64,000 nt of DNA from an uncultured Alphaproteobacteria bacterium. Its GTDB lineage: Bacteria; Pseudomonadota; Alphaproteobacteria; Bin95. The notes beneath the pieces were generated by a model that searched no databases, had not been told where the DNA came from, and worked only from the letters and a program-made list of their open reading frames with translations. Location: NCBI GenBank assembly GCA_963807085.1, contig CAWEBB010000032.1, positions 38,146 to 102,145 of the forward strand. The letters run 5' to 3'. Made by a program: the position numbers and the translations under genes. Shown here in pieces: positions 42,052 to 64,000 of this stretch (positions within the stretch are counted from its first letter, which is position 1; each line of letters starts with the position of its first letter).

Positions 42052-42091
42052 CGGTCTATCCAGAATGGCGGAATGTGCAGCAGAGGACATT

Positions 42092-43289
42092 ATGCCGGAC
42101 CAGTCTAACACCGTCCCCGCGGAGGAAGCCACCGCCCGCTTGCCGCCCGGCGCGACGATCCTGCAGGTGCTGCCGGCCATGGGAAACGGCGGCGTCGAGC
42201 GCGGCACGATCGAGGTGGCCCGGGCAATCGTCCAGGCGGGCGGGCGGGCGCTGGTCGCCTCTGCCGGCGGTCCGAACGTCGCCCGGATCGAGAGGGTGGG
42301 CGCTGAGCACGTCATGTTGCCGCTCGCGAGCAAGAACCCCGCGCGCATCATTGCAAACCGCCGGCGATTGCGACGGCTGATTGCAGAGCGGGACGTGTCG
42401 CTGGTGCACGCCCGCAGCCGTGCGCCGGCGTGGGCCGCCGGGCCGGCGGCGCGACGGGCCGGCGTTCCGTTCGTCACGACCTTTCACGGCACCTACAACG
42501 AAGGCTTCTGGCTCAAAAAGCGGTACAACCGGATCATGGCCTCGGGTGATCGGGTCGTTGCCATTTCCGAGTTTATCGCTGGCCTGATCCGAGAACGCTA
42601 TGGCACGCCGGACGAGCGCTTGCGAGGTGATCCACCGCGGCGCGGACCTGGATGTTTTCCGCCCGTCCGCCGTGGGGCCCGGCCGGTTGCTGGGGCTGCA
42701 GAACGCATGGGGCATTCATGAGTACACACGGGTGATCCTGCTTCCCGGCCGTCTGACCCGCTGGAAGGGGCAGGGGGTGCTGATCGCGGCCTTGCCGGAA
42801 TTGCGGCGGCGGCAGGACATTTCCGACGTGGCGGTGGTGCTTGCGGGCGATGCGGAGGGGCGGACCGACTACGTGGCCGAACTCCGGCGCCAGTGCTGCA
42901 AGCTCGGCCTGTCCGGCGGGCAGGTGGTCTTTGCCGGCCAATGCAACGACATGCCGGCCGCCATCATGCTGGCAGACGTGGTGGTCTCCGCCTCGATCGA
43001 GCCGGAGGCGTTCGGCCGGGTGATGGCGGAGGCCGGGGCTATGGGCAAGCCGGTTGTGGCTTCCGCTATCGGTGCGGCGCACGAAATCGTCGTGGCCGGT
43101 GAAACCGGCTGGCTCGTGCCGCCGGGCGAGCCCAAGGCAATGGCCGATGCGCTGGGCGCCGCCCTCAATTTGCCCGAGGCAAAGCGGGAAATCTTGGCTG
43201 CGCGGGCGATCGAGCGGGTGGCCTCCTCCTTTTCGGTCGAAGCGATGTGCGACAAGACCCTGGCCGTCTACCGCGAACTGATCGGGTAG
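42092..43289 (+). pseudogene. Glycosyltransferase family 1 (LPS-core-type), with a frameshift at about nt 42610
   Basis: N-terminal ...GTPDERL is in one frame and ...VIHRGADLDVF...EAFGRVMAEAGAMGKPVVAS... continues in the next (EX7E region). Confidence 0.7.
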
Positions 43290-43299
43290 GGGCTGGCCG

Positions 43300-44238
43300 G
43301 TGCAGCGCATCCTCATCATCAAGCATTCGGCGCTTGGCGACATGGCGCTGGCGTTCGGGCCGATGCAGGCCATCCGCCGCGCCCATGCCGGCGCTCATCT
43401 CACCTTGCTGACCACCCGCGCGTTTGCCGGCCTCGCCCAGGCATCAGGCATTTTTGACGATGTGTGGATCGACGAGCGGCCAAAGATATGGAGGGTCGCT
43501 GAGGTGCTCTCCCTGCGCCACCGCCTGCGCGAAGGGCGGTTCGAGCGGGTCTATGACCTGCAAACATCGAGCCGGACTGGCTGGTACTTCCGCCTGTTCT
43601 GGCCAGGACCATGGCCCGAGTGGTCCGGCATCGCCAAAGGCTGCTCGCACCCGCATCGCGATCCCGCGCGCGACACCAGGCACGTGGTGGAGGCGCGGGC
43701 CGGCCAGCTCGCCGATACGGGCATCGAGGCAACGCCGCTCTCCGACCTCTCATGGTGGCGGTCGGATATCGCGCATCTGGGCCTGCCTCTGCGCTATGCG
43801 GTGTTGTTGCCAGGCGGGGCGGCGCACCGGCCGGAAAAGCGCTGGCCTGCTGCGTCCTTTGCGGAGACCGCGGTGCGGTTGGCGGCGGCCGGCGTGACGC
43901 CCGTCGTCGTGGGCGCGACGCCCGAGGCCGCCGAAGCCCGCACCATCCAAAACGCATGCGCGGAAGCGATCGGCCTGATCGGCCGGACCTCTTTGTTGGA
44001 GCTTGGCTCCGTCATGCGCGGTGCGGCGCTGGTCGTCGGCAACGACACCGGCCCGATGCACATCGCGGCGCTGGTCGGCACGCCGGTCGTCGTGCTGTTC
44101 GGCAGCGACTCCGATCCCGCCCTGAACCGCCCGCGCGCGCCCGCATCGGCTTGGCCGCCGCGCATATTAAGAGAAAAGAGCTTGACGGACCTGCCTGTGA
44201 GCGCTGTTTGGCGGGAAATCAGCGACATTCTGGGCTGA
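43300..44238 (+). CDS. Glycosyltransferase family 9 (heptosyltransferase-like)
   Basis: [15 protein letters not shown]...[22 protein letters not shown]... Confidence 0.75.
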
Positions 44239-53110: not shown

Positions 53111-53740
53111 TCACTGGCTCGCCCATAAAATCCGGGCGATCCATTCCACCTCGGCGGTCGGCAGGACCGGGTTGTCGTATTCGGGATTGAGGCTGCGCAG
53201 TTCGATTCGCTGCGCCGTTCGCCGTACCAGTTCCTTGGCCATTACCTCGCCTTCGCTGGTTTTCACCACGACCCGATCTCCGACGCGGATATTGGCGACG
53301 GGTGAAACGATGATGCGGTCGCCGCCCCGATAGAGGGGTTCCATCGAGTCGCCGCTGACCATCAGGGCATAGGCATTGGGGTCGCCGATATCCGGAAAAA
53401 CAATCTCGTCCCAGCCCGATCCGGTCGGATAGCCGGCATCGTCGAAATAGCCGCTGTCGCCAGCCTGCGCGAAGCCGATCACGGGAATCCGCTGGGTAGC
53501 CGTGGCTGTCGAGTTTGGAAGTTCGTTCAGCAGGTCCGACAGGCTGGCGCCTGTAGCCGTCAGAATTTTCGCGATGCTCTCAGTGCTTGGCCATCGCAGC
53601 TTGCCGTCACGGGTTGCCCGCTTGCTTTTGTTGAAGGTCGTCGCATCCAGGCCGGCGCGCTTCGCCAGTCCGGAGGGAGAAAGATCGTGCTTTGCCGCCA
53701 GGCGGTCGATCGCTTCCCAGATGTCAGCGTGCTTTAACAT
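53111..53740 (-). CDS. XRE-family HTH + peptidase S24 (CI/LexA-fold) repressor, prophage-repressor type
   Basis: N-terminal HTH (LSPSGLAKRAGLDATTFNKSKR), C-terminal S24 (ALMVSGDSMEP...K). It is not the alphaproteobacterial LexA architecture. Confidence 0.8.
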   Translation of the reverse strand: MLKHADIWEAIDRLAAKHDLSPSGLAKRAGLDATTFNKSKRATRDGKLRWPSTESIAKILTATGASLSDLLNELPNSTATATQRIPVIGFAQAGDSGYFDDAGYPTGSGWDEIVFPDIGDPNAYALMVSGDSMEPLYRGGDRIIVSPVANIRVGDRVVVKTSEGEVMAKELVRRTAQRIELRSLNPEYDNPVLPTAEVEWIARILWASQ

Positions 53741-53749
53741 GATGCCTCG

Positions 53750-53774
53750 CCCTGTTGTTGGGCCTGTTGTTGGG
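53750..53774. repeat. Tandem 12/13-mer direct repeat (cctgttgttggg ×2) in the repressor's upstream region; candidate operator
   Basis: cctgttgttgggcctgttgttggg, 10-35 bp upstream of the repressor start codon. Confidence 0.5.
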
Positions 53775-53795
53775 AACACAGTCTCATACTATCGC

Positions 53796-53824
53796 TTGAC
53801 ATTCACTAGGAAAAAGTTCATATA
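53796..53824 (+). promoter_or_regulatory. Near-consensus sigma70 promoter (TTGACA-17-CATATA) facing the + strand small genes; contains two TAGGAA hexamers
   Basis: cgcTTGACAttcacTAGGAAaaagttCATATAGGAAtc. AT-rich island in a 65% GC background. Confidence 0.55.
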
Positions 53825-53858
53825 GGAATCAAAGCCGATAAATTGTTTGGAGAGAGCG

Positions 53859-54251
53859 ATGTACGATGATCCGATTGCGGGGTCGGAATCCGATGAAGGA
53901 GAGAGCCCGTTCTCCAGCGCCGACGAAGCATGGATCTGGGCCGTGCAGGGGATGCAAAGCCGCCTGTCCGGGGCAAACATCAAGGCCGGCATGGGCAAAT
54001 TTACAAGGCCTTGCGAGGCATCCGATGTTTTAGGCTGCGCCGACGCGCTGCATCGGCAGGGGGCGCTAAGCAACGTGGAGTTGCGGGTGCTGTTGCTCTA
54101 CGGCGGCTACGCGGCGGCCCCGATGATGCTGGGCTGTTCCCATGCCCCGGCGGTGCCTTTTTGGCAGCGCGGCATGGATGCGCTGACGCCATTAATGGAA
54201 CAAAAAGGGATCATTCTTCCGCGCGCAAGGGCGCGTTTCCGTGCGGACTAA
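53859..54251 (+). CDS. Hypothetical protein (130 aa)
   Basis: GGAGAG RBS and good GC3 bias; no recognisable family. Confidence 0.45.
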   Translation: MYDDPIAGSESDEGESPFSSADEAWIWAVQGMQSRLSGANIKAGMGKFTRPCEASDVLGCADALHRQGALSNVELRVLLLYGGYAAAPMMLGCSHAPAVPFWQRGMDALTPLMEQKGIILPRARARFRAD

Positions 54252-54618
54252 CGCGATCGTCGTCTTCAGCGGCCAGACCGATTTCTGGTGGCAGCGCCTG
54301 CTAAGGCCCGGCTACCGCCATTGCGGCGTCATGATCGAGTGTGGCGACCACTGGGTGGTTCTGGAGCCGCTTGCGGCGCGTTTGGAGGTGCGGATTTTCA
54401 CCGTATCCAGCCCCGACGCCCTCAAGCGGGCCCTGCGCCGCCGGCAGTTGCTGGCGGTCGAGACCGAGGTGCAAGTCGATGCGGCCCCCGCATTGTTTCC
54501 GGGCCTGTTCACCTGTGTGGAGGCCGTGAAGCGCGCCCTCGGCATTCGCGCCGTCTGGGTGCAGACCCCGTGGCAGCTCCATAAAAATCTCAAATTAGGA
54601 AAAAAAACCTTGACATGA
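54241..54618 (+). CDS. Hypothetical protein (125 aa)
   Basis: GTG start overlapping the previous stop. Its stop codon lies inside the -35 of the downstream promoter. Confidence 0.4.
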   Translation: MRTNAIVVFSGQTDFWWQRLLRPGYRHCGVMIECGDHWVVLEPLAARLEVRIFTVSSPDALKRALRRRQLLAVETEVQVDAAPALFPGLFTCVEAVKRALGIRAVWVQTPWQLHKNLKLGKKTLT

Positions 54619-54638
54619 ACACGTAATAGGAATATATA
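54610..54638 (+). promoter_or_regulatory. Near-consensus sigma70 promoter (TTGACA-17-TATATA) with an upstream A-tract, preceding the virion gene block
   Basis: attAGGAAaaaaaaccTTGACAtgaacacgtaaTAGGAAtaTATATAc. Confidence 0.55.
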
Positions 54639-54743
54639 CATCCTCAAGACGGCCCCACTGCGCCCAGCGCCCGGGGCCGTTCCTGTTTCCGACAACCGCA
54701 TGGAACGGCGCCAGACGCATGGCCGGTTCCAAAAGGAGGATGG

Positions 54744-54980
54744 ATGGGCGCCATTATCAGTCCACTGACGCGGGAGGCTCCGGCTCCCAAGCCGACGCCG
54801 ACCGTCGTCGAACCCGCGGTCGATCCGGCCGTGGCGGAGCGCGAAGCCGCATCGGCGGCCCGGCGCGCGTTCCTGGCCCGCCAACAGAAAGGGCGGCTCG
54901 GAACGATCGCCACCACCGCCCGGGGTGTTTTGAGCCCTGGCCAGTTGTCGGTCGTCCGCCGCTCATTGCTCGGAGAATAA
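54744..54980 (+). CDS. Small Pro/Ala-rich hypothetical protein (78 aa) immediately upstream of the portal gene
   Basis: AAGGAGG RBS. The stop is 1 nt before the portal ATG. Confidence 0.5.
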   Translation: MGAIISPLTREAPAPKPTPTVVEPAVDPAVAEREAASAARRAFLARQQKGRLGTIATTARGVLSPGQLSVVRRSLLGE

Positions 54981-54981
54981 G

Positions 54982-56523
54982 ATGAAGGCAGCCGAAATCC
55001 TCCGGCAGGAGTTCACGCAGGCGTTCCGTGGTCGCATGGCCTGGGAAGAGCATTGGCGCGATTGCTATGCCTACGCCATGCCGCAGCGCGAGGCCGGTGC
55101 TCCGGCGGGCGCCCGCCGCTCCGACCGTCTGTTCGACGGAACCGCGGCCGACGCGGTCGAGCAACTGGCGGCCAGCCTGCTCTCCGAACTGACGCCGCCC
55201 TGGGTGCGTTGGGTGGAACTGAAGCCGGGGCCCGAAGCCACGGTTGACGAAGCGGCGGCGATATCGCCGGCGCTCGACCGGGTGAGCGCCACGTTGCAGT
55301 CTCATTTCGACCGCTCCAACTTCGCGGTCGAAATCCACCAATGCTATCTGGACCTGGTGACGGCCGGTACCGCCTGTCTGCTGTTCGAAGAGGCGCCGGT
55401 CGGCGAGGCCAGCGCCTTTCGCTTTACCGCGGTGCCGATCCACGACGTCCTCATGCAGGAGGGCGCAACCGGCCGGTTGGACCGTGTGTGGCGCCGCGTG
55501 CAGCTGACCCCAGAGCAGTTCGTGGAACGCTACGGGCACCCGCCCACGGCCGAGCCCGGTGCGGAGGCGCCGAAAAAGATCGGCGTGCTGGAAGCCGTGC
55601 GCCCGACACCGAATGGTCACAAATACGTGGCAGTGCGCGAACAGGGGGAAGGCGACGACGGAACCCTGGCGGAAGGCGAGTTCGCCTCCAACCCCTTTAT
55701 CGGCTTCCGCTGGCTGAAAGCGCCGGGCGAGTCCTATGGACGTTCGCCGGTGATGACCGCCTTGCCGGATATCAAGACCGCTAACAAGGTCGTGGAGCTG
55801 ATTCTTAAGAACGCCTCCATCGCCGTCACCGGCATCTGGCAAGCGGACGACGACGGCGTCCTGAACCCCGGCACGGTCAAGCTGGTACCCGGCACCATCA
55901 TTCCGAAGGCCGTCGGCTCGGCGGGCCTGGCGCCGCTGCAGGCGCCCGGCCGGTTCGATGTTTCCGAATTGGTCCTCAGCGATCTGCGCGCCCGCATTCG
56001 TCACGCCCTGCTGGTGGACCGGTTGGGTACGGTGCAAAGTCCGCGCATGACCGCGACCGAGGTGTTGGAGCGCTCGGCGGAGATGGCCCGCATCCTGGGG
56101 GCGACCTATGGCCGGCTTCAGGCGGAGCTGTTGTCGCCCTTGCTTTCGCGGGGGCTCAGCATTCTGCGTCGGCGCGGCGAGGTTCCGGATGTTCAGGTCG
56201 ATGGGCGCACGGTTGACCTGCACTACCGCTCGCCGCTGGCGGAAGCGCAGAACCGGGCGGAGGCGCAATCGGCGCTGGGCTGGGTCAAGACCGTCGCCGA
56301 GATGGGGCCGGAGGGTCTCTCGGTCGTCGATCTGCCCGCCTTCGCGCGCTGGCTGGCGGGCAAGATGTCGGTGCCGGGAGAACTGCTGCGCCCGCCGCCC
56401 TTGGCGCCGATCACCGACGTTTCCGGCGATGACGCGCTCGCCCAGTTGTCGGACGCGCTGCTGCCCGCTCTTGGAGAAGGCGCCGGAGTGAATACCGGGG
56501 AGGGCGACGGCGATGCTGAATGA
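54982..56523 (+). CDS. T7-type portal (head-to-tail connector) protein
   Basis: Collinear with T7 gp8, including LKAPGESYGRSPV versus T7 RLDGESYGRSYIE, plus SNFAVEIHQCYLDLVTAGTACLLFEE. Confidence 0.8.
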   Translation: MKAAEILRQEFTQAFRGRMAWEEHWRDCYAYAMPQREAGAPAGARRSDRLFDGTAADAVEQLAASLLSELTPPWVRWVELKPGPEATVDEAAAISPALDRVSATLQSHFDRSNFAVEIHQCYLDLVTAGTACLLFEEAPVGEASAFRFTAVPIHDVLMQEGATGRLDRVWRRVQLTPEQFVERYGHPPTAEPGAEAPKKIGVLEAVRPTPNGHKYVAVREQGEGDDGTLAEGEFASNPFIGFRWLKAPGESYGRSPVMTALPDIKTANKVVELILKNASIAVTGIWQADDDGVLNPGTVKLVPGTIIPKAVGSAGLAPLQAPGRFDVSELVLSDLRARIRHALLVDRLGTVQSPRMTATEVLERSAEMARILGATYGRLQAELLSPLLSRGLSILRRRGEVPDVQVDGRTVDLHYRSPLAEAQNRAEAQSALGWVKTVAEMGPEGLSVVDLPAFARWLAGKMSVPGELLRPPPLAPITDVSGDDALAQLSDALLPALGEGAGVNTGEGDGDAE

Positions 56524-56776
56524 TCTTCAGGACGGATGGGCGTGGTTTGACGACCCGTCGGAACGGCAGGCGGACAGTGAGCTGCGGCAGTATTTCGTCC
56601 GCGCCTTTCATTCGGACGCGGGGCGGCAGGTGTTGGCGCATTTGCGCGCCGCAACGGTGGAACGGCGCACGCCGCCCGACGCGCCGGACAGCGTCCTCCG
56701 CCATCTGGAGGGCCAACGCTACCTGTTTCAACTGATCGAACGGCTGGCGAATGCCGAGCTGCAGGAGTCTGCGTAG
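56513..56776 (+). CDS. Hypothetical protein (87 aa), overlapping the portal 3' end
   Basis: Coding-like GC3; unknown function. Confidence 0.35.
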   Translation: MLNDLQDGWAWFDDPSERQADSELRQYFVRAFHSDAGRQVLAHLRAATVERRTPPDAPDSVLRHLEGQRYLFQLIERLANAELQESA

Positions 56777-56777
56777 A

Positions 56778-57578
56778 ATGAACGAACCTCTCAACACACC
56801 CACCGAGAGCGGCGATAGCGCGATTTCGGCCGGCACCGCGCAGGGCCTGCCGGAGCGGTCAATGGAGCGGCCCGGCGAGGGAGCCGTTACGCGGCCCGCA
56901 TCGGTTCCGGACAAATTCTGGGACACGGCGACGAACTCCGTCCGTGTGGACGACCTCGCCAAATCCTATTGCGAGCTGGAGCGCCATTTGGGCGGCTCCG
57001 TAAAGATTCCGGACGAAAGCGCGGACGATGCGGAGATCGCCCGTTTCCGCCAGGCCCTGGGCGTGCCGGAAAACCCCGATGGCTATGAACTTCAACTGGA
57101 CGAAGAAAGCCTGGAAGCCGACCCGGAGGTCAACCGCCGGCTGCACGAAGCGGGCTTCAGCCAAAGCCAGGCCCAGCTCGTCTATGACTTGGCCAGGGAA
57201 TATATCGGCCCCATGGTTCAGCAGACCGCCGCCGATTTCGAGGCAGAGCGCCAGACCGAGCGCCTGCAACAGCATTTCGGCGGTGCGGAGGCCTGGACGG
57301 GCATCTCGCGCCAGCTTCAGGAATGGGGCAAGGCCAACATGGCGCCGGAGGCTCTTAGCGCACTGTCGACTACCTATGAGGGATGTTTGGCGCTGCACAA
57401 AATGATGCAAAGCCAGGAGCCCGGCCTCGTCCGCAGCAACGGCCCCGCCGAGCGGGATGGCACCGACGAGTTGAAGGCGATGATGCGCGACCCGCGTTAT
57501 TGGCGCGACCGCGACCCTGCCTTCATCCGACAAGTCACCGATGGTTTCAGCCGCCTGTACGCCGACGGCGACGGCTAG
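56778..57578 (+). CDS. Putative scaffolding protein (acidic; 266 aa)
   Basis: Position between portal and capsid; acidic, coiled-coil-like composition. Confidence 0.45.
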   Translation: MNEPLNTPTESGDSAISAGTAQGLPERSMERPGEGAVTRPASVPDKFWDTATNSVRVDDLAKSYCELERHLGGSVKIPDESADDAEIARFRQALGVPENPDGYELQLDEESLEADPEVNRRLHEAGFSQSQAQLVYDLAREYIGPMVQQTAADFEAERQTERLQQHFGGAEAWTGISRQLQEWGKANMAPEALSALSTTYEGCLALHKMMQSQEPGLVRSNGPAERDGTDELKAMMRDPRYWRDRDPAFIRQVTDGFSRLYADGDG

Positions 57579-57843
57579 GCGGAGCCATCTGGAGCAGATA
57601 CCGATCCAGTCGGATTGGATGCTCAAGGAATCGCTAGGGCGCGCACGATCGCGCGCCCTAGCGGTGGCGGGCCCGCCGGAGAACTGGAGATTTCCCCGCC
57701 CGAGAGGGCGTGTTTGGGAAAAGTCGCCAGCCCGGCGGGCCTTCAGGCAGAACGACGGCCGTTCCGCAGGTGCAAACCTACGGGGCGGGAACCGGATGGA
57801 AGCTGCTTCCCCACCAACAGAAAAATCAAAGGGTTAATTGCAG

Positions 57844-58662
57844 ATGTCGACCACCATCGACCAATCGTTCATCCGCCAGTTCGAGGCCGAAGTTCACGAG
57901 GCCTATCAGCGGATGGGATCCAAGCTCCGTCAGACTGTCCGCTCCAAGGGCAATGTACAAGGTTCCTCGACCACCTTCCAAAGGGTCGGCCAGGGCGCGG
58001 CTTCCACCAAGTCGCGGCATGGCCTGGTCCCCGTCATGACTATCGATCACAGCGCCATCGAGTGCGTGCTGACCGACTATTATGCCGGTGACTGGGTCGA
58101 CAAGCTCGACGAGATGAAAATCAACATCGACGAGCGGCACGTGATCGCCAACGCCGGCGCCTATGCGCTGGGCCGCAAGACGGACGAGTTGATCATCGCC
58201 GGCCTGAACACGTCCACTAACTACGCCGGTCTCGCGACCGACGGCCTGACGAAGGCCAAGGTTCTGACCGCCTTTGAGAAGATGGGGGCGGCGGATATTC
58301 CCGACGATGGCCAGCGCTTCGCGGTCATCGGCTGGAAACAGTGGGCGGAGTTGCTTAGCATTCCGGAGTTCGCCAACGCGGAATATGTCGGGGCGGACGC
58401 GCTGCCCTGGCGCGACACACAGGCGAAGCGCTGGCTCGGAACCACCTGGATCCCGCATTCCGGCCTGTCTCTTTCCGGCTCGGCGCGCCTGTGTCACTGG
58501 TACCATCGGACGGCGATCGGTCATGCGGCCGCCGCAGAGGTCCAGACCGACATCACCTGGCACGGCGACCGGGCGGCCTACTTTGTCGCCAACATGATGA
58601 GCCAGGGTGCGGTGAGGATCGACGGCGCCGGTGTCGTGACCATGCGTTGCTTCGAGAGCTAA
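57844..58662 (+). CDS. T7-type major capsid protein
   Basis: FIRQFEAEVHEAYQRMGSKLRQTVRSKGNVQGSSTTFQRVGQ parallels T7 gp10 LFLKVFGGEVLTAFARTSVTTSRHMVRSISSGKSAQFPVLGR. Confidence 0.7.
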   Translation: MSTTIDQSFIRQFEAEVHEAYQRMGSKLRQTVRSKGNVQGSSTTFQRVGQGAASTKSRHGLVPVMTIDHSAIECVLTDYYAGDWVDKLDEMKINIDERHVIANAGAYALGRKTDELIIAGLNTSTNYAGLATDGLTKAKVLTAFEKMGAADIPDDGQRFAVIGWKQWAELLSIPEFANAEYVGADALPWRDTQAKRWLGTTWIPHSGLSLSGSARLCHWYHRTAIGHAAAAEVQTDITWHGDRAAYFVANMMSQGAVRIDGAGVVTMRCFES

Positions 58663-58689
58663 ACCGCCAAGCTGAAGAAGGGACGCCAC

Positions 58690-58929
58690 ATGGCATTCGA
58701 CCCCCAAAACATGGGCGTGCTGGGCTACTGCAATGGCTTTACTCTCTGGTATTATCGGTCGGCGACGGACAATTACCCGACCGTTACCGCAGACGGCTAT
58801 TTCACCCCGTTCTATGAGTCTCTCAGTCTGGAAGATGTCATCTTCTTTACCGAGTCGAATGGACGGACCGGCCGGCGGCGTATCAACCAACTGTCCAAGT
58901 CGTTGGTGACGATAACGCACCTGCTTTAG
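58690..58929 (+). CDS. Hypothetical protein (79 aa)
   Basis: ORF with an ATG start between the capsid and tubular A genes. Confidence 0.3.
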   Translation: MAFDPQNMGVLGYCNGFTLWYYRSATDNYPTVTADGYFTPFYESLSLEDVIFFTESNGRTGRRRINQLSKSLVTITHLL

Positions 58930-59019
58930 CTCCCTAGCAACTCAGCAACCACTCATATCAGCCGCGGCCTCGCTCTCGATCGGGAGCGGGGCCGTTTCCT
59001 TATCAAGGGAGTTTTCTCG

Positions 59020-59592
59020 ATGGCTCTTAGCGCTATCGCGCTCTGCTCGCGCGCGCTGTTGAAGCTCGGCGCCCGGCCGATCGCCGGGTTCGACGAAGGC
59101 ACTGCCGAAGCGGAGGTCGCGGTCAATCTGTTTCCCTCCATCCGCGATGCGTTGCTTTCGGCGCATGGCTGGTCGTTCGCCACGGCCCAGAGCCGGCTGC
59201 CCCAGCTGGAAGAAGCGCCGGTGGCGGATTTCGACCGGGCTTTTCAACTGCCCGTGGATTTCCTGCGGGCCTTGTCGGCCGGTGCGGGTGCGCGCGGCCG
59301 CGGCCTGGTCTACCGGATTGTGGATGATCGGCTGCATACCTCCTCAAGCGAAGTTTATCTGACCTACATTTTCCGGCCAGCCGAGGTCGATTTCCCGCCA
59401 TTTTTCGACCAGCTTCTGATCGCCCGGCTTGCCGCGGAGTTTTGCATTCCGGTCACGGAAAGCACCAGCCGCGCCGAGATGCTGTACCGGATCGCCGAAA
59501 CCGAGTTCCGCCGCGCGCGCCTGGTCGATGCACAGCAGGACACGCCGCTCGCGATCGAAGACTTCCCGCTGGTTGCGGTGCGCGGCCGATGA
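59020..59592 (+). CDS. T7-type tail tubular protein A (gp11-like)
   Basis: Size and position match; ALLKLGARPIAGFDEG...LLSAHGWSFA parallels T7 gp11 ILASIGEPPVSTLEGD...IQSRGWTFN. GGGAG RBS. Confidence 0.6.
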   Translation: MALSAIALCSRALLKLGARPIAGFDEGTAEAEVAVNLFPSIRDALLSAHGWSFATAQSRLPQLEEAPVADFDRAFQLPVDFLRALSAGAGARGRGLVYRIVDDRLHTSSSEVYLTYIFRPAEVDFPPFFDQLLIARLAAEFCIPVTESTSRAEMLYRIAETEFRRARLVDAQQDTPLAIEDFPLVAVRGR

Positions 59593-61493
59593 CGGTCGTC
59601 AACCTGTTGAAGACCAACTTCACGGCGGGCGAGATCTCGCCGCTGCTGTATGGCCGCGGGGATTTGCGCGCGTACGACAACGGCGCGGCAAAGCTTCAAA
59701 ACGTCTTCATTCACCCGACCGGCGGCGTCTATCGCCGGCCTGGCCTCCGCTATATCGGGCCTGCGCGCGGGCGCGGGCGCCTTATGACGTTCGAGTTCAA
59801 TACCGAACAGGTGTACCTGCTCGCCTTCAGCGACCGGATGCTGGACATCTATGAAGGGGACAACCTGGTCGTCTCGGTCGCGACGCCCTGGACCGAAGCG
59901 CAACTGGCGCAGATCGCCTGGACCCAAAGCGCCGACACATTGCTCGTGACCCATCCGGACGTGCCGCCCCGGCGGATCACCCGGACGGGCCCCGCCACCT
60001 GGACCGTCAGCGAGTGGGTTTTCGCCGAAAAGGACGGCGTGTGGTACGCGCCATTTTTCCGGTTCGGCCACACGGGCGTGACGCTGACGCCGAGCGCCGT
60101 GACCGGCGCCATCACCATCACCGCGTCTGCGGCGGTGTTCGATGCAAACCATGTCGGCACCCGCCTGCGGTTGGCGACCAAGCAGGTGGCGATCACCGGC
60201 TTCACCTCGCCGACGCAAGTGAGCGCCGACGTTCTGCAAGACCTGGCTGGCCTGGAGCCGACCGAAGATTGGGACGAACCGGCCTTTTCCCCGCGGCGCG
60301 GCTGGCCGGTCACGGTGGCCTTTCATCAGGATCGGCTGGTCATTGGCGGCTCCCGCGATCTGCCGAACCGGCTTTGGTTCTCCAAGTCGGGCGACCTGTT
60401 CAACTTCGATCAGGGCGAGGGCCTGGACGACGAAGCGATCGAGTTTCCGATCCTCTCCGATCAGGTCAACGCCATCCGTGCCCTGTTCTCAGGCCGGCAC
60501 CTGCAGGTCTTTACCTCGGGCGCCGAATGGATGGTGACGGGCGACCCGTTGGCGCCGACCACCGTGCAGCTGCGCCGGCAGACCCGCATCGGCTCGCTGA
60601 TCAGCCGAACAATTCCCCCGAAAGACGTGGATGGCGCGACCATGTTCGTCGGGCGCACCGGTCACGAGCTGCGGGAGTTCCTGTTCTCGGATATCGAGCA
60701 GGCCTATCAGGCGGGCGACCTGGCGCTGCTGGTCGCGCACTTCTTCCGTGATCCGCTCATGCAGGATTTCGACCCGGCCCACCGGCTGCTGCATCTGGTG
60801 CTGGCGGATGGGACGCTGGCGACGCTGACAATCTACCGCAACGAGCAGGTTACCGCCTGGACGCGGCAGATCACGGAAGGTTCCTTCCGCGACTTGGCGG
60901 TCGTCGGCGATACCACGTACGTGCTGGTGCAGCGTGCGCACGGCCTGTTCGTCGAAGTCTTCGACGAAACATTTGGCGTCGATAGCGGCGTCCATACCCA
61001 GGTGTTTACCCTGGAGGACTCCGCGACCGGTCTGGACCACCTGGAAGGGCAGACCGTTGCCATTGTCGCCGATGGCACCCTGCGCCAGTCCCAGACGGTA
61101 CAGGGTGGGCGAGTTGCGGTCGGTGCTGCCGCCTACCAGGCAGCGATCGGGCTGCCCTTTCAGCACATTATCGAGGCGCTGCCGGTCGCCGGATCGATGC
61201 CGGGCGGCTCGGCCCAGGGCCGTTCTTACCGGGTGGTCGAGGCAACCTTCCGCCTGCACGAGACGGGGGCGCTCGTCTGCGACCTGGGTTCCGGCCTGAC
61301 GCCGGTGCCGTTTCGGCAGGTGGGCGGGACCACCAGCTTCGGCAGTCCCGCCCCGAACTTTTCCGGGGACAAGCATATCCGCGCGCTCGGCTGGCGGCGC
61401 TCCGGCATCGATGCGCCATGGCGCATCGATCAGGACGCGCCGCTGCCGTGCACCGTTCTTTCCGTAACAACTGAAATCAAGGTGACCAACTGA
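59589..61493 (+). CDS. T7-type tail tubular protein B (gp12-like)
   Basis: N-terminal NFTAGEISPLLYGRGDLRAY...VYRRPGLRYI parallels T7 gp12 NLKGGISQQPDILRYPDQ...KRPPLVFL. ATGA overlap with the gp11-like gene. Confidence 0.65.
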   Translation: MTVVNLLKTNFTAGEISPLLYGRGDLRAYDNGAAKLQNVFIHPTGGVYRRPGLRYIGPARGRGRLMTFEFNTEQVYLLAFSDRMLDIYEGDNLVVSVATPWTEAQLAQIAWTQSADTLLVTHPDVPPRRITRTGPATWTVSEWVFAEKDGVWYAPFFRFGHTGVTLTPSAVTGAITITASAAVFDANHVGTRLRLATKQVAITGFTSPTQVSADVLQDLAGLEPTEDWDEPAFSPRRGWPVTVAFHQDRLVIGGSRDLPNRLWFSKSGDLFNFDQGEGLDDEAIEFPILSDQVNAIRALFSGRHLQVFTSGAEWMVTGDPLAPTTVQLRRQTRIGSLISRTIPPKDVDGATMFVGRTGHELREFLFSDIEQAYQAGDLALLVAHFFRDPLMQDFDPAHRLLHLVLADGTLATLTIYRNEQVTAWTRQITEGSFRDLAVVGDTTYVLVQRAHGLFVEVFDETFGVDSGVHTQVFTLEDSATGLDHLEGQTVAIVADGTLRQSQTVQGGRVAVGAAAYQAAIGLPFQHIIEALPVAGSMPGGSAQGRSYRVVEATFRLHETGALVCDLGSGLTPVPFRQVGGTTSFGSPAPNFSGDKHIRALGWRRSGIDAPWRIDQDAPLPCTVLSVTTEIKVTN

Positions 61494-61948
61494 TGGGCGC
61501 AGTAGCTCCTGTAATCGCGGCAGGCTCGCTGATGGGATTGAGCCTGCTCGACAACGCCAACTCCGCGCGCACGGCCCAGCAACGGGCGGCGCAATCCTCC
61601 GAGGCGGCCCGGGCCAATGCCGACCTGCAACTGGCGAAGCTCCAGTCCGACCAGGAAGAGAGCCAGGCCAAGCGGCAGTCGGCGTTGCGGCGCGCGCAGG
61701 CACGCACGCGGGCCCTGCTGGCCAGCCGCGGCGTCGGCGGCTCCGGCCGTGCCGTGCTGCAGGGCCTGGCGGTCGAAGCCGCCCGGGACCAAGCGTTTGC
61801 GGACAGCGATGCCGACTTGCAGCGCCAGAGTATCGAGCTGGGCGTGGACACCACGCGCCGGCGCAACCTGCTGGCCGCCGACGATGCGCGACGCCGCGCC
61901 CAGTTGGACCTGCTGCGCACCGGCACCCGCACGATCAACAGCCTATAG
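61493..61948 (+). CDS. Hypothetical coiled-coil virion protein (151 aa; possibly gp13/gp14-like)
   Basis: ATG overlaps the gp12-like stop (cTGATGg). Gln/Arg/Ala-rich. Confidence 0.4.
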   Translation: MGAVAPVIAAGSLMGLSLLDNANSARTAQQRAAQSSEAARANADLQLAKLQSDQEESQAKRQSALRRAQARTRALLASRGVGGSGRAVLQGLAVEAARDQAFADSDADLQRQSIELGVDTTRRRNLLAADDARRRAQLDLLRTGTRTINSL

Positions 61949-61967
61949 CGCCGACGGAGAACGACCG

Positions 61968-64000
61968 ATGGTTCAGTCCAAACATATAAGAATACAAGCA
62001 AAAAGCCCGCGCGTGCAGTACATTGCCGACGGCACGCAAACCTTCTTCACGTTCACTTTTCCCGTCTTTCATGCCGGCAATCTGCACGTCTATGTCGATG
62101 AGGTTCTGCAGGTCGGCACCTATACGGCGAACGGTGTCGGCGCGAGCCATGGCGGCGCGATCGTATTCGAGAACCCGCCGCCCGCGGGCGCCCGCATCAC
62201 GCTGCGGCGGCTGCTGCCGGTCGAGCGGGTCACTGACTTTCAGGAAGGGGGCGATTTTCGCGCCGCGACCCTGAATGACGAACTCGACTACCAGACCGCG
62301 GCCATGCAGCAGATCCAGTCGGACATGGAGCGGGGCCTTCGCCTGGCGCCGACCGATACGGAAGCGACGACCACCCTGCCGGGCAAGGGGGACCGCGCCG
62401 GCAAGTTCCTGGCGTTCGACACCGCTGGGCAGCCGGTGGCGCTGCCGCCGACCACGGATATGCCCGGCGACGCCAGTACCGCCTATGTGATCGGCTCCGG
62501 CCAGGTGACACCGCGCACGCTCGCAGACCGCTTTTCGGCGATCCCGACCGTGCTGGACCAGGGAGCGAAGGGCGATGGCGGCACCGACGATGGCCCGGTC
62601 CTTGCAACGCTTGCTTCGCCTCACTTGCTGCCGGCCGGCAGTTATGCGGTCAGTGCCGACGATCTGCCGGCGGTCCGCCCCTATAACGTTTACGGTGGCG
62701 GCGAACTGGTGGACCCGAACGCGACCGAAACCTCGCTCCGTGCCCGTCAGCGCCTGCTGAACGATCGCGGCATGGGGTATTCGCTGGGCATGATGGCCAG
62801 CCTGTTGCCGGATCTCTCCGGGCCGCGGATGGATATGGCGGCGCTTGCCGATGCGATTGCAATGGGGGCCGCCAAAGTGGTCCTGGTCGGCGACAGCATT
62901 ACCGAAGGGGCGGACGTCGAGGAGGAAAACAGTTGGGGCGCGCTGCTCCAGCAGAGCCTCGAGCGCACCTTTCCGGAGGTCACCTGGACCTTCGCCAACC
63001 TATCGCTCGCCTCGCGCCATGCCGAGCATCTGGCGGACCCGGCCTATTTGGGCTTGCCCAGCGAGCCGGCGGACAAGGAGCAGGGCTTCTTTCGCCCACC
63101 CGCCACCGCCTTTCCCCGTGAGAACTGGCAGGCCGGCTCCGTCACCGGCAAGTCCTGGCGCAACCATGTGCGGGACGAGGCGCCGGATCTGATCGTCTGG
63201 GCGCACGGGATGAACAATTTTCACCTCTCCGGCCAGCAATATTTCGCCGCGCTGATCAGCTTTCTGGACTATGCGAAGACCTGGGCAAAGGTGCCGGCGA
63301 TCGCGCTGGCCACGACATTTCTGCCGACACGCCTGAACCCGATCTATCGGGCGCGTCAGGGGGCGCATGACGGGCACTACCGCATCCTGCGGGAGATTGC
63401 CGTGATCCGCCGCACGGGTCTGATCGATGCGAACCGGGTCTATCACTTCCTGCGCGATGGTGTGGACGAAGGGCGCCGCCACTGGTTCCGCGAAGACAAT
63501 TTCCGCGGGTGGAACACAGCCTGGTGGGATTTCCTCGAAGGCGGCACCGGTCAGGTGGCCACCGCCTCCGGCCGGCTGCGCTTTTCCGGCATCGCCCGGC
63601 CCCGGCGCAAGCTGATGGCCGCCGACTTCCAGGCGGACATTACCTGGAAGCCGGCGAATGCTGCAGATGTGCTGGGGTTCAATTACCGTGTCGACCCGGA
63701 CAATGGCGCCGATCGGTACGAGTTCCAGTGGTCCGGCCCGAACCTGAAGATCTACTGGAAGAACACGGTCAAGCTTGCCGCTATTGATGCGGCGGCGGCG
63801 GCCGGCACCGACAATTTCGTGCGCATCCGCTGCGACGGCGCCCGGCATCGCGTCTGGATCAATGGCGTCCTGAAGCTGGATGGCAATGACTTTGCCAACC
63901 TGGCCGAAGGTTCGTGCGCATATCGCGCCTATCTGGGCAGTGCGGCCGCCGCGGAAATCGGCTGCCGGCTGAAGATCGGTTACCCGGCCCGGCATGCCCG
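61968..64000 (+). CDS. Tail fibre protein: T7 gp17-type N-terminal domain fused to an SGNH/GDSL hydrolase-like domain; 3' end lies beyond the window
   Basis: GGAG RBS and ATG 61968. Frame 0 stays open to nt 64000 by manual translation. QYIADGTQTFFTFTFPVF..NLHVYVDEV....ARITLRRLLPVERVTDFQEGGDFRAATLNDELDYQTAAMQQIQ matches the T7 fibre N-domain pattern. Later VVLVGDSITEG and WAHGMNNF resemble SGNH blocks I and III. Confidence 0.75.
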   Translation, partial: MVQSKHIRIQAKSPRVQYIADGTQTFFTFTFPVFHAGNLHVYVDEVLQVGTYTANGVGASHGGAIVFENPPPAGARITLRRLLPVERVTDFQEGGDFRAATLNDELDYQTAAMQQIQSDMERGLRLAPTDTEATTTLPGKGDRAGKFLAFDTAGQPVALPPTTDMPGDASTAYVIGSGQVTPRTLADRFSAIPTVLDQGAKGDGGTDDGPVLATLASPHLLPAGSYAVSADDLPAVRPYNVYGGGELVDPNATETSLRARQRLLNDRGMGYSLGMMASLLPDLSGPRMDMAALADAIAMGAAKVVLVGDSITEGADVEEENSWGALLQQSLERTFPEVTWTFANLSLASRHAEHLADPAYLGLPSEPADKEQGFFRPPATAFPRENWQAGSVTGKSWRNHVRDEAPDLIVWAHGMNNFHLSGQQYFAALISFLDYAKTWAKVPAIALATTFLPTRLNPIYRARQGAHDGHYRILREIAVIRRTGLIDANRVYHFLRDGVDEGRRHWFREDNFRGWNTAWWDFLEGGTGQVATASGRLRFSGIARPRRKLMAADFQADITWKPANAADVLGFNYRVDPDNGADRYEFQWSGPNLKIYWKNTVKLAAIDAAAAAGTDNFVRIRCDGARHRVWINGVLKLDGNDFANLAEGSCAYRAYLGSAAAAEIGCRLKIGYPARHA

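Follow-up and report, generated by a model that had tools for sequence, protein, structure and literature searches.

Receptor-binding proteins with an SGNH domain form an established and prevalent class (PMC13123978, PMC11058221). Two Klebsiella prophage fibres have confirmed esterase activity (PMC13123978), a deacetylase tailspike has been described for an Acinetobacter phage (PMC8471582), and gp63.1 of phage G7C (PDB: 4QNL) is an SGNH esterase fibre experimentally shown to deacetylate the O-antigen of E. coli. Gene transfer agents (GTAs), in turn, are described as occupying a fixed locus, co-diverging with their host, and evolving under purifying selection (PMC11841831, PMC9662315). Here we analysed a stretch of 64,000 nucleotides (nt), referred to as the window, from an uncultured Alphaproteobacteria bacterium (GCA_963807085.1, contig CAWEBB010000032.1, positions 38,146 to 102,145), and in particular the tail fibre gene that begins at window position 61968 and the phage-derived element that carries it.

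We consider it likely that this gene encodes an 859-residue fibre or tailspike of a short-tailed, phage-derived particle of the T7/HTVC010P type, in which an anchor is joined to an SGNH deacetylase, and that the gene belongs to a domesticated cluster sooner than to an active prophage. By analogy with the characterised esterase fibres, the protein would very probably strip acetyl groups from a cell-surface sugar polymer; both the deacetylase activity and its substrate are what we infer.

Reading frame, anchor and shaft of the fibre

An ATG at position 61968 of the forward strand opens a frame of 677 codons, and translation of 61968-64000 revealed no stop up to the end of the window, in agreement with the earlier note. 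The frame is missing from the list of open reading frames (ORFs), as that note had remarked, for the sole reason that the tool skips ORFs that continue beyond the source sequence. The full-length ORF sought in the note was recovered as protein P0001, which has 859 amino acids (aa) and is 100% identical over all 677 shared residues; its gene lies on a second contig (locus L001) that shows the remainder of the gene and the region downstream. Judging from this copy, the fibre gene would run about 547 nt beyond the window and end at about 64547 in window coordinates. A Shine-Dalgarno sequence precedes the ATG, the TAG of the upstream gene (61946-61948) lies 19 nt before it, and the GC content per codon position in the fibre frame is 0.65/0.56/0.79, the coding pattern of the host genome (65% GC). 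The features of the gene are listed below; the codon of the block V residue His706 lies beyond the window end, at about 64083-64085.

61956..61959, + strand: Shine-Dalgarno sequence GGAG, 8 nt before the ATG (direct sequence reading)
61968..64000, + strand: tail fibre gene, aa 1-677 of 859 (open frame and the identical full-length P0001 at locus L001)
61968..62342, + strand: predicted T7 gp17-type anchor domain, aa 1-125 (PHROG 1640, PDB Dpo31/Dpo36, Pfam PF03906, model)
62343..62753, + strand: shaft or linker, aa 126-262 (low confidence in the monomer model; BLASTP and tblastn limits)
62562-62597, + strand: vestigial start of a pectate-lyase-type beta-helix, GAKGDGGTDDGP, aa 199-210, within the shaft
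62754..63461, + strand: main, N-terminal part of the predicted SGNH fold (beta1-beta5 and helices), aa 263-498
62889..62897, + strand: block I, G308-D309-S310, with Ser310 as predicted nucleophile (conservation, alignment to 7DDY/3RJT/6HFZ)
62997..63014, + strand: block II-like N344-L-S-L-A-S349 (family consensus N-x-[SAG]-x-[GAS]-[GS])
63207..63218, + strand: block III, G414-M-N416-N417, with Asn416 as predicted oxyanion-hole residue (conservation, GxND of 7DDY/3RJT)
63462..63992, + strand: concanavalin-like beta-sandwich (CBM66/DUF1080-like), aa 499-675, inserted in the SGNH fold before the block V loop

Residues 1-125 are predicted to form a gp17-type anchor. PHROG 1640, annotated as tail protein, matches this region with an E value of 1e-29, and a dozen further tail-fibre PHROGs also match, all limited to residues ~10-125. 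The solved N-terminus of the Dpo31/Dpo36 tailspike in the PDB aligns with an E value of 1.4e-10. Phage_T7_tail (Pfam PF03906) is matched singly by 17 of 26 fibres of related elements, with a best value of 1.4e-7. In the full-length model the anchor appears as a beta-rich core (aa 13-83) followed by a helix (aa 102-125), with a predicted local distance difference test (pLDDT) of 75-90. Together with the gene order, in which the fibre comes after the tubular A and B homologues, these matches bear out the proposal that the first ~120 residues are a T7 fibre N-domain.

The shaft appears to hold the junction between two modules of different origin. Only aa 3-210 of P0001 aligned with P0034 in BLASTP, and tblastn coverage ends at aa ~210-229 in loci L009-L081. 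The similarity to the Acetobacteraceae fibres therefore stops at aa ~210, which points to a recombination or module-swap breakpoint there. Just before it lies GAKGDGGTDDGP, the motif with which the pectate-lyase-type beta-helix begins in fibres from the related elements. On this alignment evidence, the distal module would have been gained by recombination at aa ~210, displacing the pectate-lyase beta-helix of related elements.

Predicted SGNH esterase module and proposed function

A domain-only AlphaFold2 model of the enzymatic region, built from 105 sequences, reached a mean pLDDT of 95.4 and a predicted template modelling score (pTM) of 0.94, and displays the three-layer alpha/beta/alpha fold of SGNH enzymes. 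A first full-length AlphaFold2 model, based on a 14-sequence alignment, was set aside (mean pLDDT 61, weak in the enzymatic region). According to the domain model, the predicted SGNH esterase spans aa ~263-732, with a lectin-like insert (aa 499-675) located just before the His loop. Foldseek concurs with the matches of the module to SGNH esterases, which are listed here with their scores.

6HFZ: SGNH acetyl-mannan esterase (206 residues, 2.3 Å), 20.7
More than 20 further entries: GDSL/SGNH esterases, 16-18
8GLD and 4K3U: peptidoglycan O-acetylesterase Ape1, 18.0 and 17.1
4QNL: phage G7C esterase fibre gp63.1, 16.0
9LNA: phage SFP21A tail fibre, 14.9

Profile searches with the homologous family led to the same fold. 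Lipase_GDSL_2 has matches in 67 of the 70 homologous modules, with E <= 1e-3 and a best value of 1.8e-18, and Lipase_GDSL in 58 of the 70, and in a profile search of PDB sequences the family motifs GDSIT and PDLVV..G.N aligned with blocks I and III of 7DDY, 3RJT, and 6HFZ. Family profiles and model thus both support the SGNH fold, the point on which the earlier note had made its proposal depend. The motifs it had picked out, VVLVGDSITEG and WAHGMNNF, are present at aa 304-314 and aa 411-418. Its expectation of a catalytic Ser/Asp/His set holds for the fold, the Ser, and the His; the canonical Asp is absent.

Conservation was evaluated across 130 full-length modules that are merely 22-34% identical to the fibre, with gap rows excluded from the Ser count. 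Ser310, in the G308-D309-S310 motif at the end of strand 301-308 in the model, is kept in 127/127 rows and is also invariant in A2. His706 is found in 129/129 rows and Asn416 in 129/130, while Gly308 is present in 123 rows, Asn344 in 123/130, and Gly414 in 117/130. In the domain-only model, His706 (model residue 444) is positioned in a loop just before a long C-terminal helix (447-468), where SGNH enzymes have their block V (PMC9487903). CE2 esterases and a Streptomyces scabies esterase are documented to be active with a Ser-His dyad that lacks the Asp (PMC9487903), so a dyad is likely in the fibre as well. We propose that the active site is probably of this Ser-His type, as judged from the aligned sequences. 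The missing block V Asp is a departure from the classical triad that is compatible with membership in the SGNH superfamily.

The insert is a beta-sandwich jelly-roll that resembles the glycan-binding modules CBM66 and DUF1080. Residues 733-859 form a further beta-sandwich that ends the protein (pLDDT 77-93 in the full-length model); searches of Pfam, PHROGs, and PDB sequences gave no match for this domain, and it is missing from the distant module relative P0040. Purifying selection acts on every region of the fibre (omega 0.03-0.45 in four pairs, with dS, the synonymous divergence, near saturation in some comparisons). Of the four pairs, three show the fastest evolution in the C-terminal domain (omega 0.26-0.45), whose omega is 0.09 in the pair with L002.

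The module extends well beyond the fibres of this clade. An exhaustive HMMER search with a module-only profile returned 763 representative clusters, defined at 50% identity, at E <= 1e-3 and 174 at E <= 1e-30, and most matches span the whole 450-residue module, at varying offsets within proteins that are 430-1250 aa long. With the C-terminal part as query, two word-indexed searches for homologues had given only ~15 close relatives, and the wider family appeared with the exhaustive search. The N-termini of the 70 proteins include Phage_T7_tail, tail-collar, and BppU_N phage anchors and one YadA-type coiled stalk. These varied anchors and offsets suggest a swappable module of receptor-binding proteins. 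No dedicated Pfam or PHROG model spans the whole SGNH module with its lectin insert.

The SGNH module with its inserted lectin domain was observed as a large, widespread family behind many anchors, for example in P0056 of Ralstonia mannitolilytica (788 aa). A separate architecture was observed in four metagenomic proteins of ~805 aa (P0016-P0019), where the same anchor is combined with a beta-helix of pectate-lyase type and, at the C-terminus, a classical GDSL domain whose block V has the canonical D-x-x-H (GDNLHPT). This architecture indicates that esterase modules were recruited to this fibre family more than once.

In the mechanism we propose, a trimeric fibre would dock through its anchor onto the adaptor-nozzle junction of the tubular A and B homologues, by analogy with T7. 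The lectin-like insert would act together with the distal sandwich to hold an O-acetylated polysaccharide of the cell surface, which may be O-antigen, capsule, or exopolysaccharide. The SGNH site would then take off the acetyl groups, likely by the Ser-His dyad in which the Asp is replaced by Ala or Gly. Binding and deacetylation could let the particle work its way to the outer membrane, comparable to gp63.1 of phage G7C.

Several observations weigh against this interpretation. Taken alone, the fibre scored 28.9 and 27.9 bits with Lipase_GDSL_2 (cutoff 32.9; best at residues 307-338), 19.4 bits with Lipase_GDSL (cutoff 23.6), 22.0 bits with 3keto-disac_hyd over residues 566-644 of the insert (cutoff 26.8), and 20.1 bits with PF03906 over residues 15-104 of the anchor (cutoff 25.2). 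Position 703, three before His706, is Ala in the fibre and Gly or Ala across the family, where the canonical Asp of DxxH would be expected, and position 349 of block II is Ser in the fibre and 24 others of the 130 modules, compared with Gly in 99/130. With Ala703 and Ser349, the activity could be reduced or altered. Among 50,697 phage records searched by tblastn, the module had no relative at the sequence level, and the transfer of function from gp63.1 consequently rests on the fold and not on close homology. Trimerisation and docking are presumably as in T7, from which they are taken, the monomer model being poor in the shaft (pLDDT < 50 over aa 84-272).

Ala703, Ser349, and the GDSL scores below the Pfam cutoffs would also fit an SGNH domain that is catalytically dead, with a fibre that only binds polysaccharide and keeps the esterase fold as a scaffold. 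We regard this as improbable: the near invariance of Ser310, Asn416, and His706 in such a divergent family would be difficult to account for if the site were not catalytic, the enzymes cited above are active with dyads that have no Asp, and the contribution of block II to the oxyanion hole is a backbone amide, for which Ser could replace Gly. A different target, namely O-acetylated peptidoglycan (compare Ape1 among the structural matches) or a lipid or lipoprotein ester, would make the enzyme an aid to envelope penetration and not to receptor recognition. This alternative seems more doubtful still. The domain sits distally on an external fibre behind a gp17-type anchor and not on an internal or ejection protein, the insert resembles the glycan-binding CBM66 and DUF1080, the best structural match is a carbohydrate acetyl-esterase, and O-antigen or capsule is the target of every characterised SGNH enzyme carried on a fibre (PMC13123978, PMC8471582). 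Deacetylation of a surface polysaccharide is hence the function that we prefer for the fibre.

The earlier note had also pointed to nearby genes for lipopolysaccharide-core glycosyltransferases as a hint to the receptor. These genes exist: a GT4 glycosyltransferase (42065-43289, + strand) and a GT9 heptosyltransferase (43300-44238). Both are ordinary host genes that lie ~10 kb outside the element with housekeeping genes between, and we rejected them as evidence on the receptor. The GT4 gene is split over two overlapping ORFs in different frames (42065-42721 and 42600-43289, + strand), one carrying the N-terminal Glyco_transf_4 and the other the C-terminal Glycos_transf_1 domain; this suggests a frameshift, which would mean either a pseudogene or an assembly error.

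Carrying element and its inheritance

Up to ~53.1 kb the window contains host housekeeping genes, including an aminoacyl-tRNA synthetase, IF-3, an indolepyruvate oxidoreductase, a luciferase-like monooxygenase, and an oxygenase. The genes of the element upstream of the fibre are as follows.

53111..53779, - strand: CI/LexA-type repressor (helix-turn-helix and S24 peptidase), divergent, at the left end of the element (PHROG 4, 7.3e-31; Pfam Peptidase_S24, 4.6e-22, and HTH_26)
54982..56523, + strand: T7-type portal, or head-to-tail connector (Pfam Head-tail_con, 4.7e-134)
56751..57578, + strand: scaffold or head-assembly protein (PHROG 3742 and 1052)
57838..58662, + strand: major capsid protein (Pfam Phage_capsid_2, 1.5e-77; PHROG 3437)
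59020..59592, + strand: homologue of tail tubular protein A, the adaptor (PHROG 394, 5e-42)
59442..61493, + strand: homologue of tail tubular protein B, the nozzle, maximal ORF (PHROG 376 tail protein, 3.5e-147)
61493..61948, + strand: gp14-like internal virion protein of 151 aa, directly before the fibre (Pfam T7_gp14, 24.7 bits, just under the cutoff of 27)

Two small ORFs lie between the repressor and the portal. Downstream of the fibre, locus L001 displays a small XhlA/hemolysin-like gene, three small ORFs, the terminase gene TerL, and a cell-wall hydrolase, followed by pyrD of the host. Repressor, portal, scaffold, capsid, tubular proteins A and B, the gp14-like protein, fibre, small ORFs, TerL, and a hydrolase make up the inventory for the window, L001, and L012. 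The element thereby covers ~14.5 kb (53111-64000 of the window plus 1-7815 of L001), compared with ~12.5 kb in Elioraea. Genes for an integrase, an excisionase, replication, or an RNA/DNA polymerase were not detected at any locus examined of the 12.5-14.5 kb element; several small ORFs are left without assignment, and a function may thus have escaped detection. No att-like direct repeats were found at the element boundaries, and no tRNA genes within the window. Core proteins of gp15 or gp16 size were not found in the element, whose sole candidate for an internal virion protein is the 151-aa gp14-like gene.

Two further observations concern the gene models. The listed ORF of tubular protein B starts from a TTG at 59442 and overlaps tubular protein A by 150 nt (59442-59592); since the orthologues have ~626 aa, translation probably begins near 59.6 kb. 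This clade has four small ORFs between the fibre and TerL (92, 219, 101, and 119 aa; L001 4168-5795), where the Acetobacteraceae elements have one of ~99 aa.

A genome scan with the fibre alignment revealed 334 related loci in species-representative genomes, nearly all in Acetobacteraceae or other Rhodospirillales. The genes, the repressor included, stand at near-identical offsets in ~45 complete loci, which represent more than 15 genera. An MprF-like gene is the left neighbour in 31 of the 45, and DUF952 and pyrD recur on the right. Pairwise identities of the element genes, evaluated in the Acetobacteraceae alone, follow those of pyrD, with a Mantel rho of 0.87 for the portal, 0.83 for TerL, 0.66 for the capsid, and 0.67 for tubular protein B (each p = 0.001). 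In six sister-species pairs, dS of the element genes is approximately that of the flanking host genes, and the ratio of nonsynonymous to synonymous divergence (dN/dS) ranges from 0.00 to 0.28 for the element compared with 0.07-0.30 for the host flanks.

This compact, syntenic, and co-diverging cluster suggests a domesticated, GTA-like particle. Fixed position, co-divergence, matching dS, purifying selection, and the lack of att repeats together argue for an anciently fixed and vertically inherited particle cluster of the GTA or PBSX type. On these genomic grounds, an active prophage is the less likely reading of the carrying element, which would most probably be a domesticated particle cluster fixed in the chromosome. 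The phage-style repressor that it retains speaks against full host control.

The repressor is also what would be expected of an ordinary inducible temperate podophage that integrates repeatedly at one site and whose esterase serves productive infection. Its S24 autocleavage domain is retained and conserved, the element has a full set of head, tail, TerL, and lysis-type genes, and IMG/VR lists relatives as viral contigs. The relatives in IMG/VR (L085, L087, L097, L101-L103), however, present the same compact element as fragments of ~12-13.7 kb. The nearest genuine phage-like contigs, L104 and L107, have 33 and 40 kb and a GC content of 52-55%; they share the capsid at 56-64% identity and the portal and tubular proteins at merely ~30-34% (portal ~34%). 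Repeated integration would have to recur between the same host neighbours across genera and yield co-divergence with pyrD and dS equal to that of the flanks, in an element where neither att-like repeats nor the genes for integration and replication were detected. We therefore consider a temperate phage of this kind unlikely and retain the domesticated cluster as the preferred interpretation of the element.

A more specific proposal, which we put forward tentatively as a possibility short of an even chance, is that the cluster is a new domesticated element of podovirus type (T7/HTVC010P-like, ~12.5-14.5 kb) with GTA- or PBSX-like character, that it was fixed before the Acetobacteraceae genera split and has been selectively maintained, and that its fibre tip is swapped by lineage, tuning which surface polysaccharide, and with it which kin cells, would be targeted. 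The tips found are a pectate-lyase beta-helix in most lineages and the SGNH esterase with its CBM66-like insert in this clade. No description of a GTA or domesticated podovirus of these genera was found in the searchable literature, whose coverage is incomplete, so that this is weak evidence of absence.

A damaged copy was observed at locus L004 in a metagenome-assembled genome (CBDBCB010000018.1). Its orthologous fibre (P0007, 1009 aa) has an rve-type transposase fragment fused to the N-terminus and a scrambled C-terminus, and the locus lacks every gene of the element that should precede the fibre. The copy has apparently been broken by an insertion sequence, indicating that loss of the element does occur.

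Relation to known systems

The fibre is a new, divergent addition to the documented class of esterase fibres. Receptor-binding proteins of this class recognise and modify acetylated surface polysaccharides and do not cut them, and the fibre adds one example. A lectin-like domain inside an SGNH fold, and a probable Ser-His dyad, may be useful to enzymologists and to those who engineer receptor-binding proteins. The element context may matter more than the fibre itself, as a conserved podovirus-type cluster with lineage-specific tip swaps. To our knowledge, there is no earlier genetically defined short-tailed GTA-like system. If the cluster really makes particles, it would be the first, and it would also offer a tractable case of a domesticated particle that is retargeted by exchanging its fibre tips.

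Compared with gp63.1 of phage G7C, the fibre has 16% identity, an internal CBM66-like insertion, and no block V Asp. The anchors also differ, gp63.1 being attached through gp66 in an N4-like phage and the present fibre having a gp17-type N-domain. The whole two-domain module is matched by the predicted structures of the tail spike of Pectobacterium phage Possum (A0A7T0LWL4) and of an SGNH protein of Escherichia phage anhysbys (A0A6B9XI16), with Foldseek E values of 2.8e-21 and 1.1e-20 and a query template modelling score of 0.58-0.59 over 460-477 columns; both are only 15-17% identical to this fibre. We know of no experimental characterisation of either protein. The two-domain acetyl-mannan esterase RiCE17/CEX (PDB: 6HFZ/6HH9), 15% identical, is a bacterial gut enzyme and not a virion protein. 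Its second domain presumably comes after the SGNH domain, whereas the sandwich of this fibre interrupts the SGNH fold ahead of the block V loop.

With T7 gp17 the fibre shares the N-terminal anchor and a gene position downstream of the gp11 and gp12 tubular homologues. T7 gp17 ends in a non-enzymatic receptor-binding tip, in contrast to the esterase predicted here, and the fibre gene of this element directly follows a gp14-like gene, with no core proteins of gp15 or gp16 size. The nearest cultured phages are HTVC010P-type pelagiphages, with a capsid identity of 30-50%.

The element resembles GTAs (RcGTA and others) and PBSX-type defective prophages in its compact head-tail-terminase-lysis cluster, in which replication and integration genes were not detected. 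Its fixed chromosomal position, host co-divergence, and purifying selection are further likenesses to GTAs. By contrast, this element is a podovirus module of the T7/HTVC010P type that keeps a phage-style CI/S24 repressor, and it has no sequence relationship to the known GTAs that have been sequenced, which belong to the siphovirus or myovirus type.

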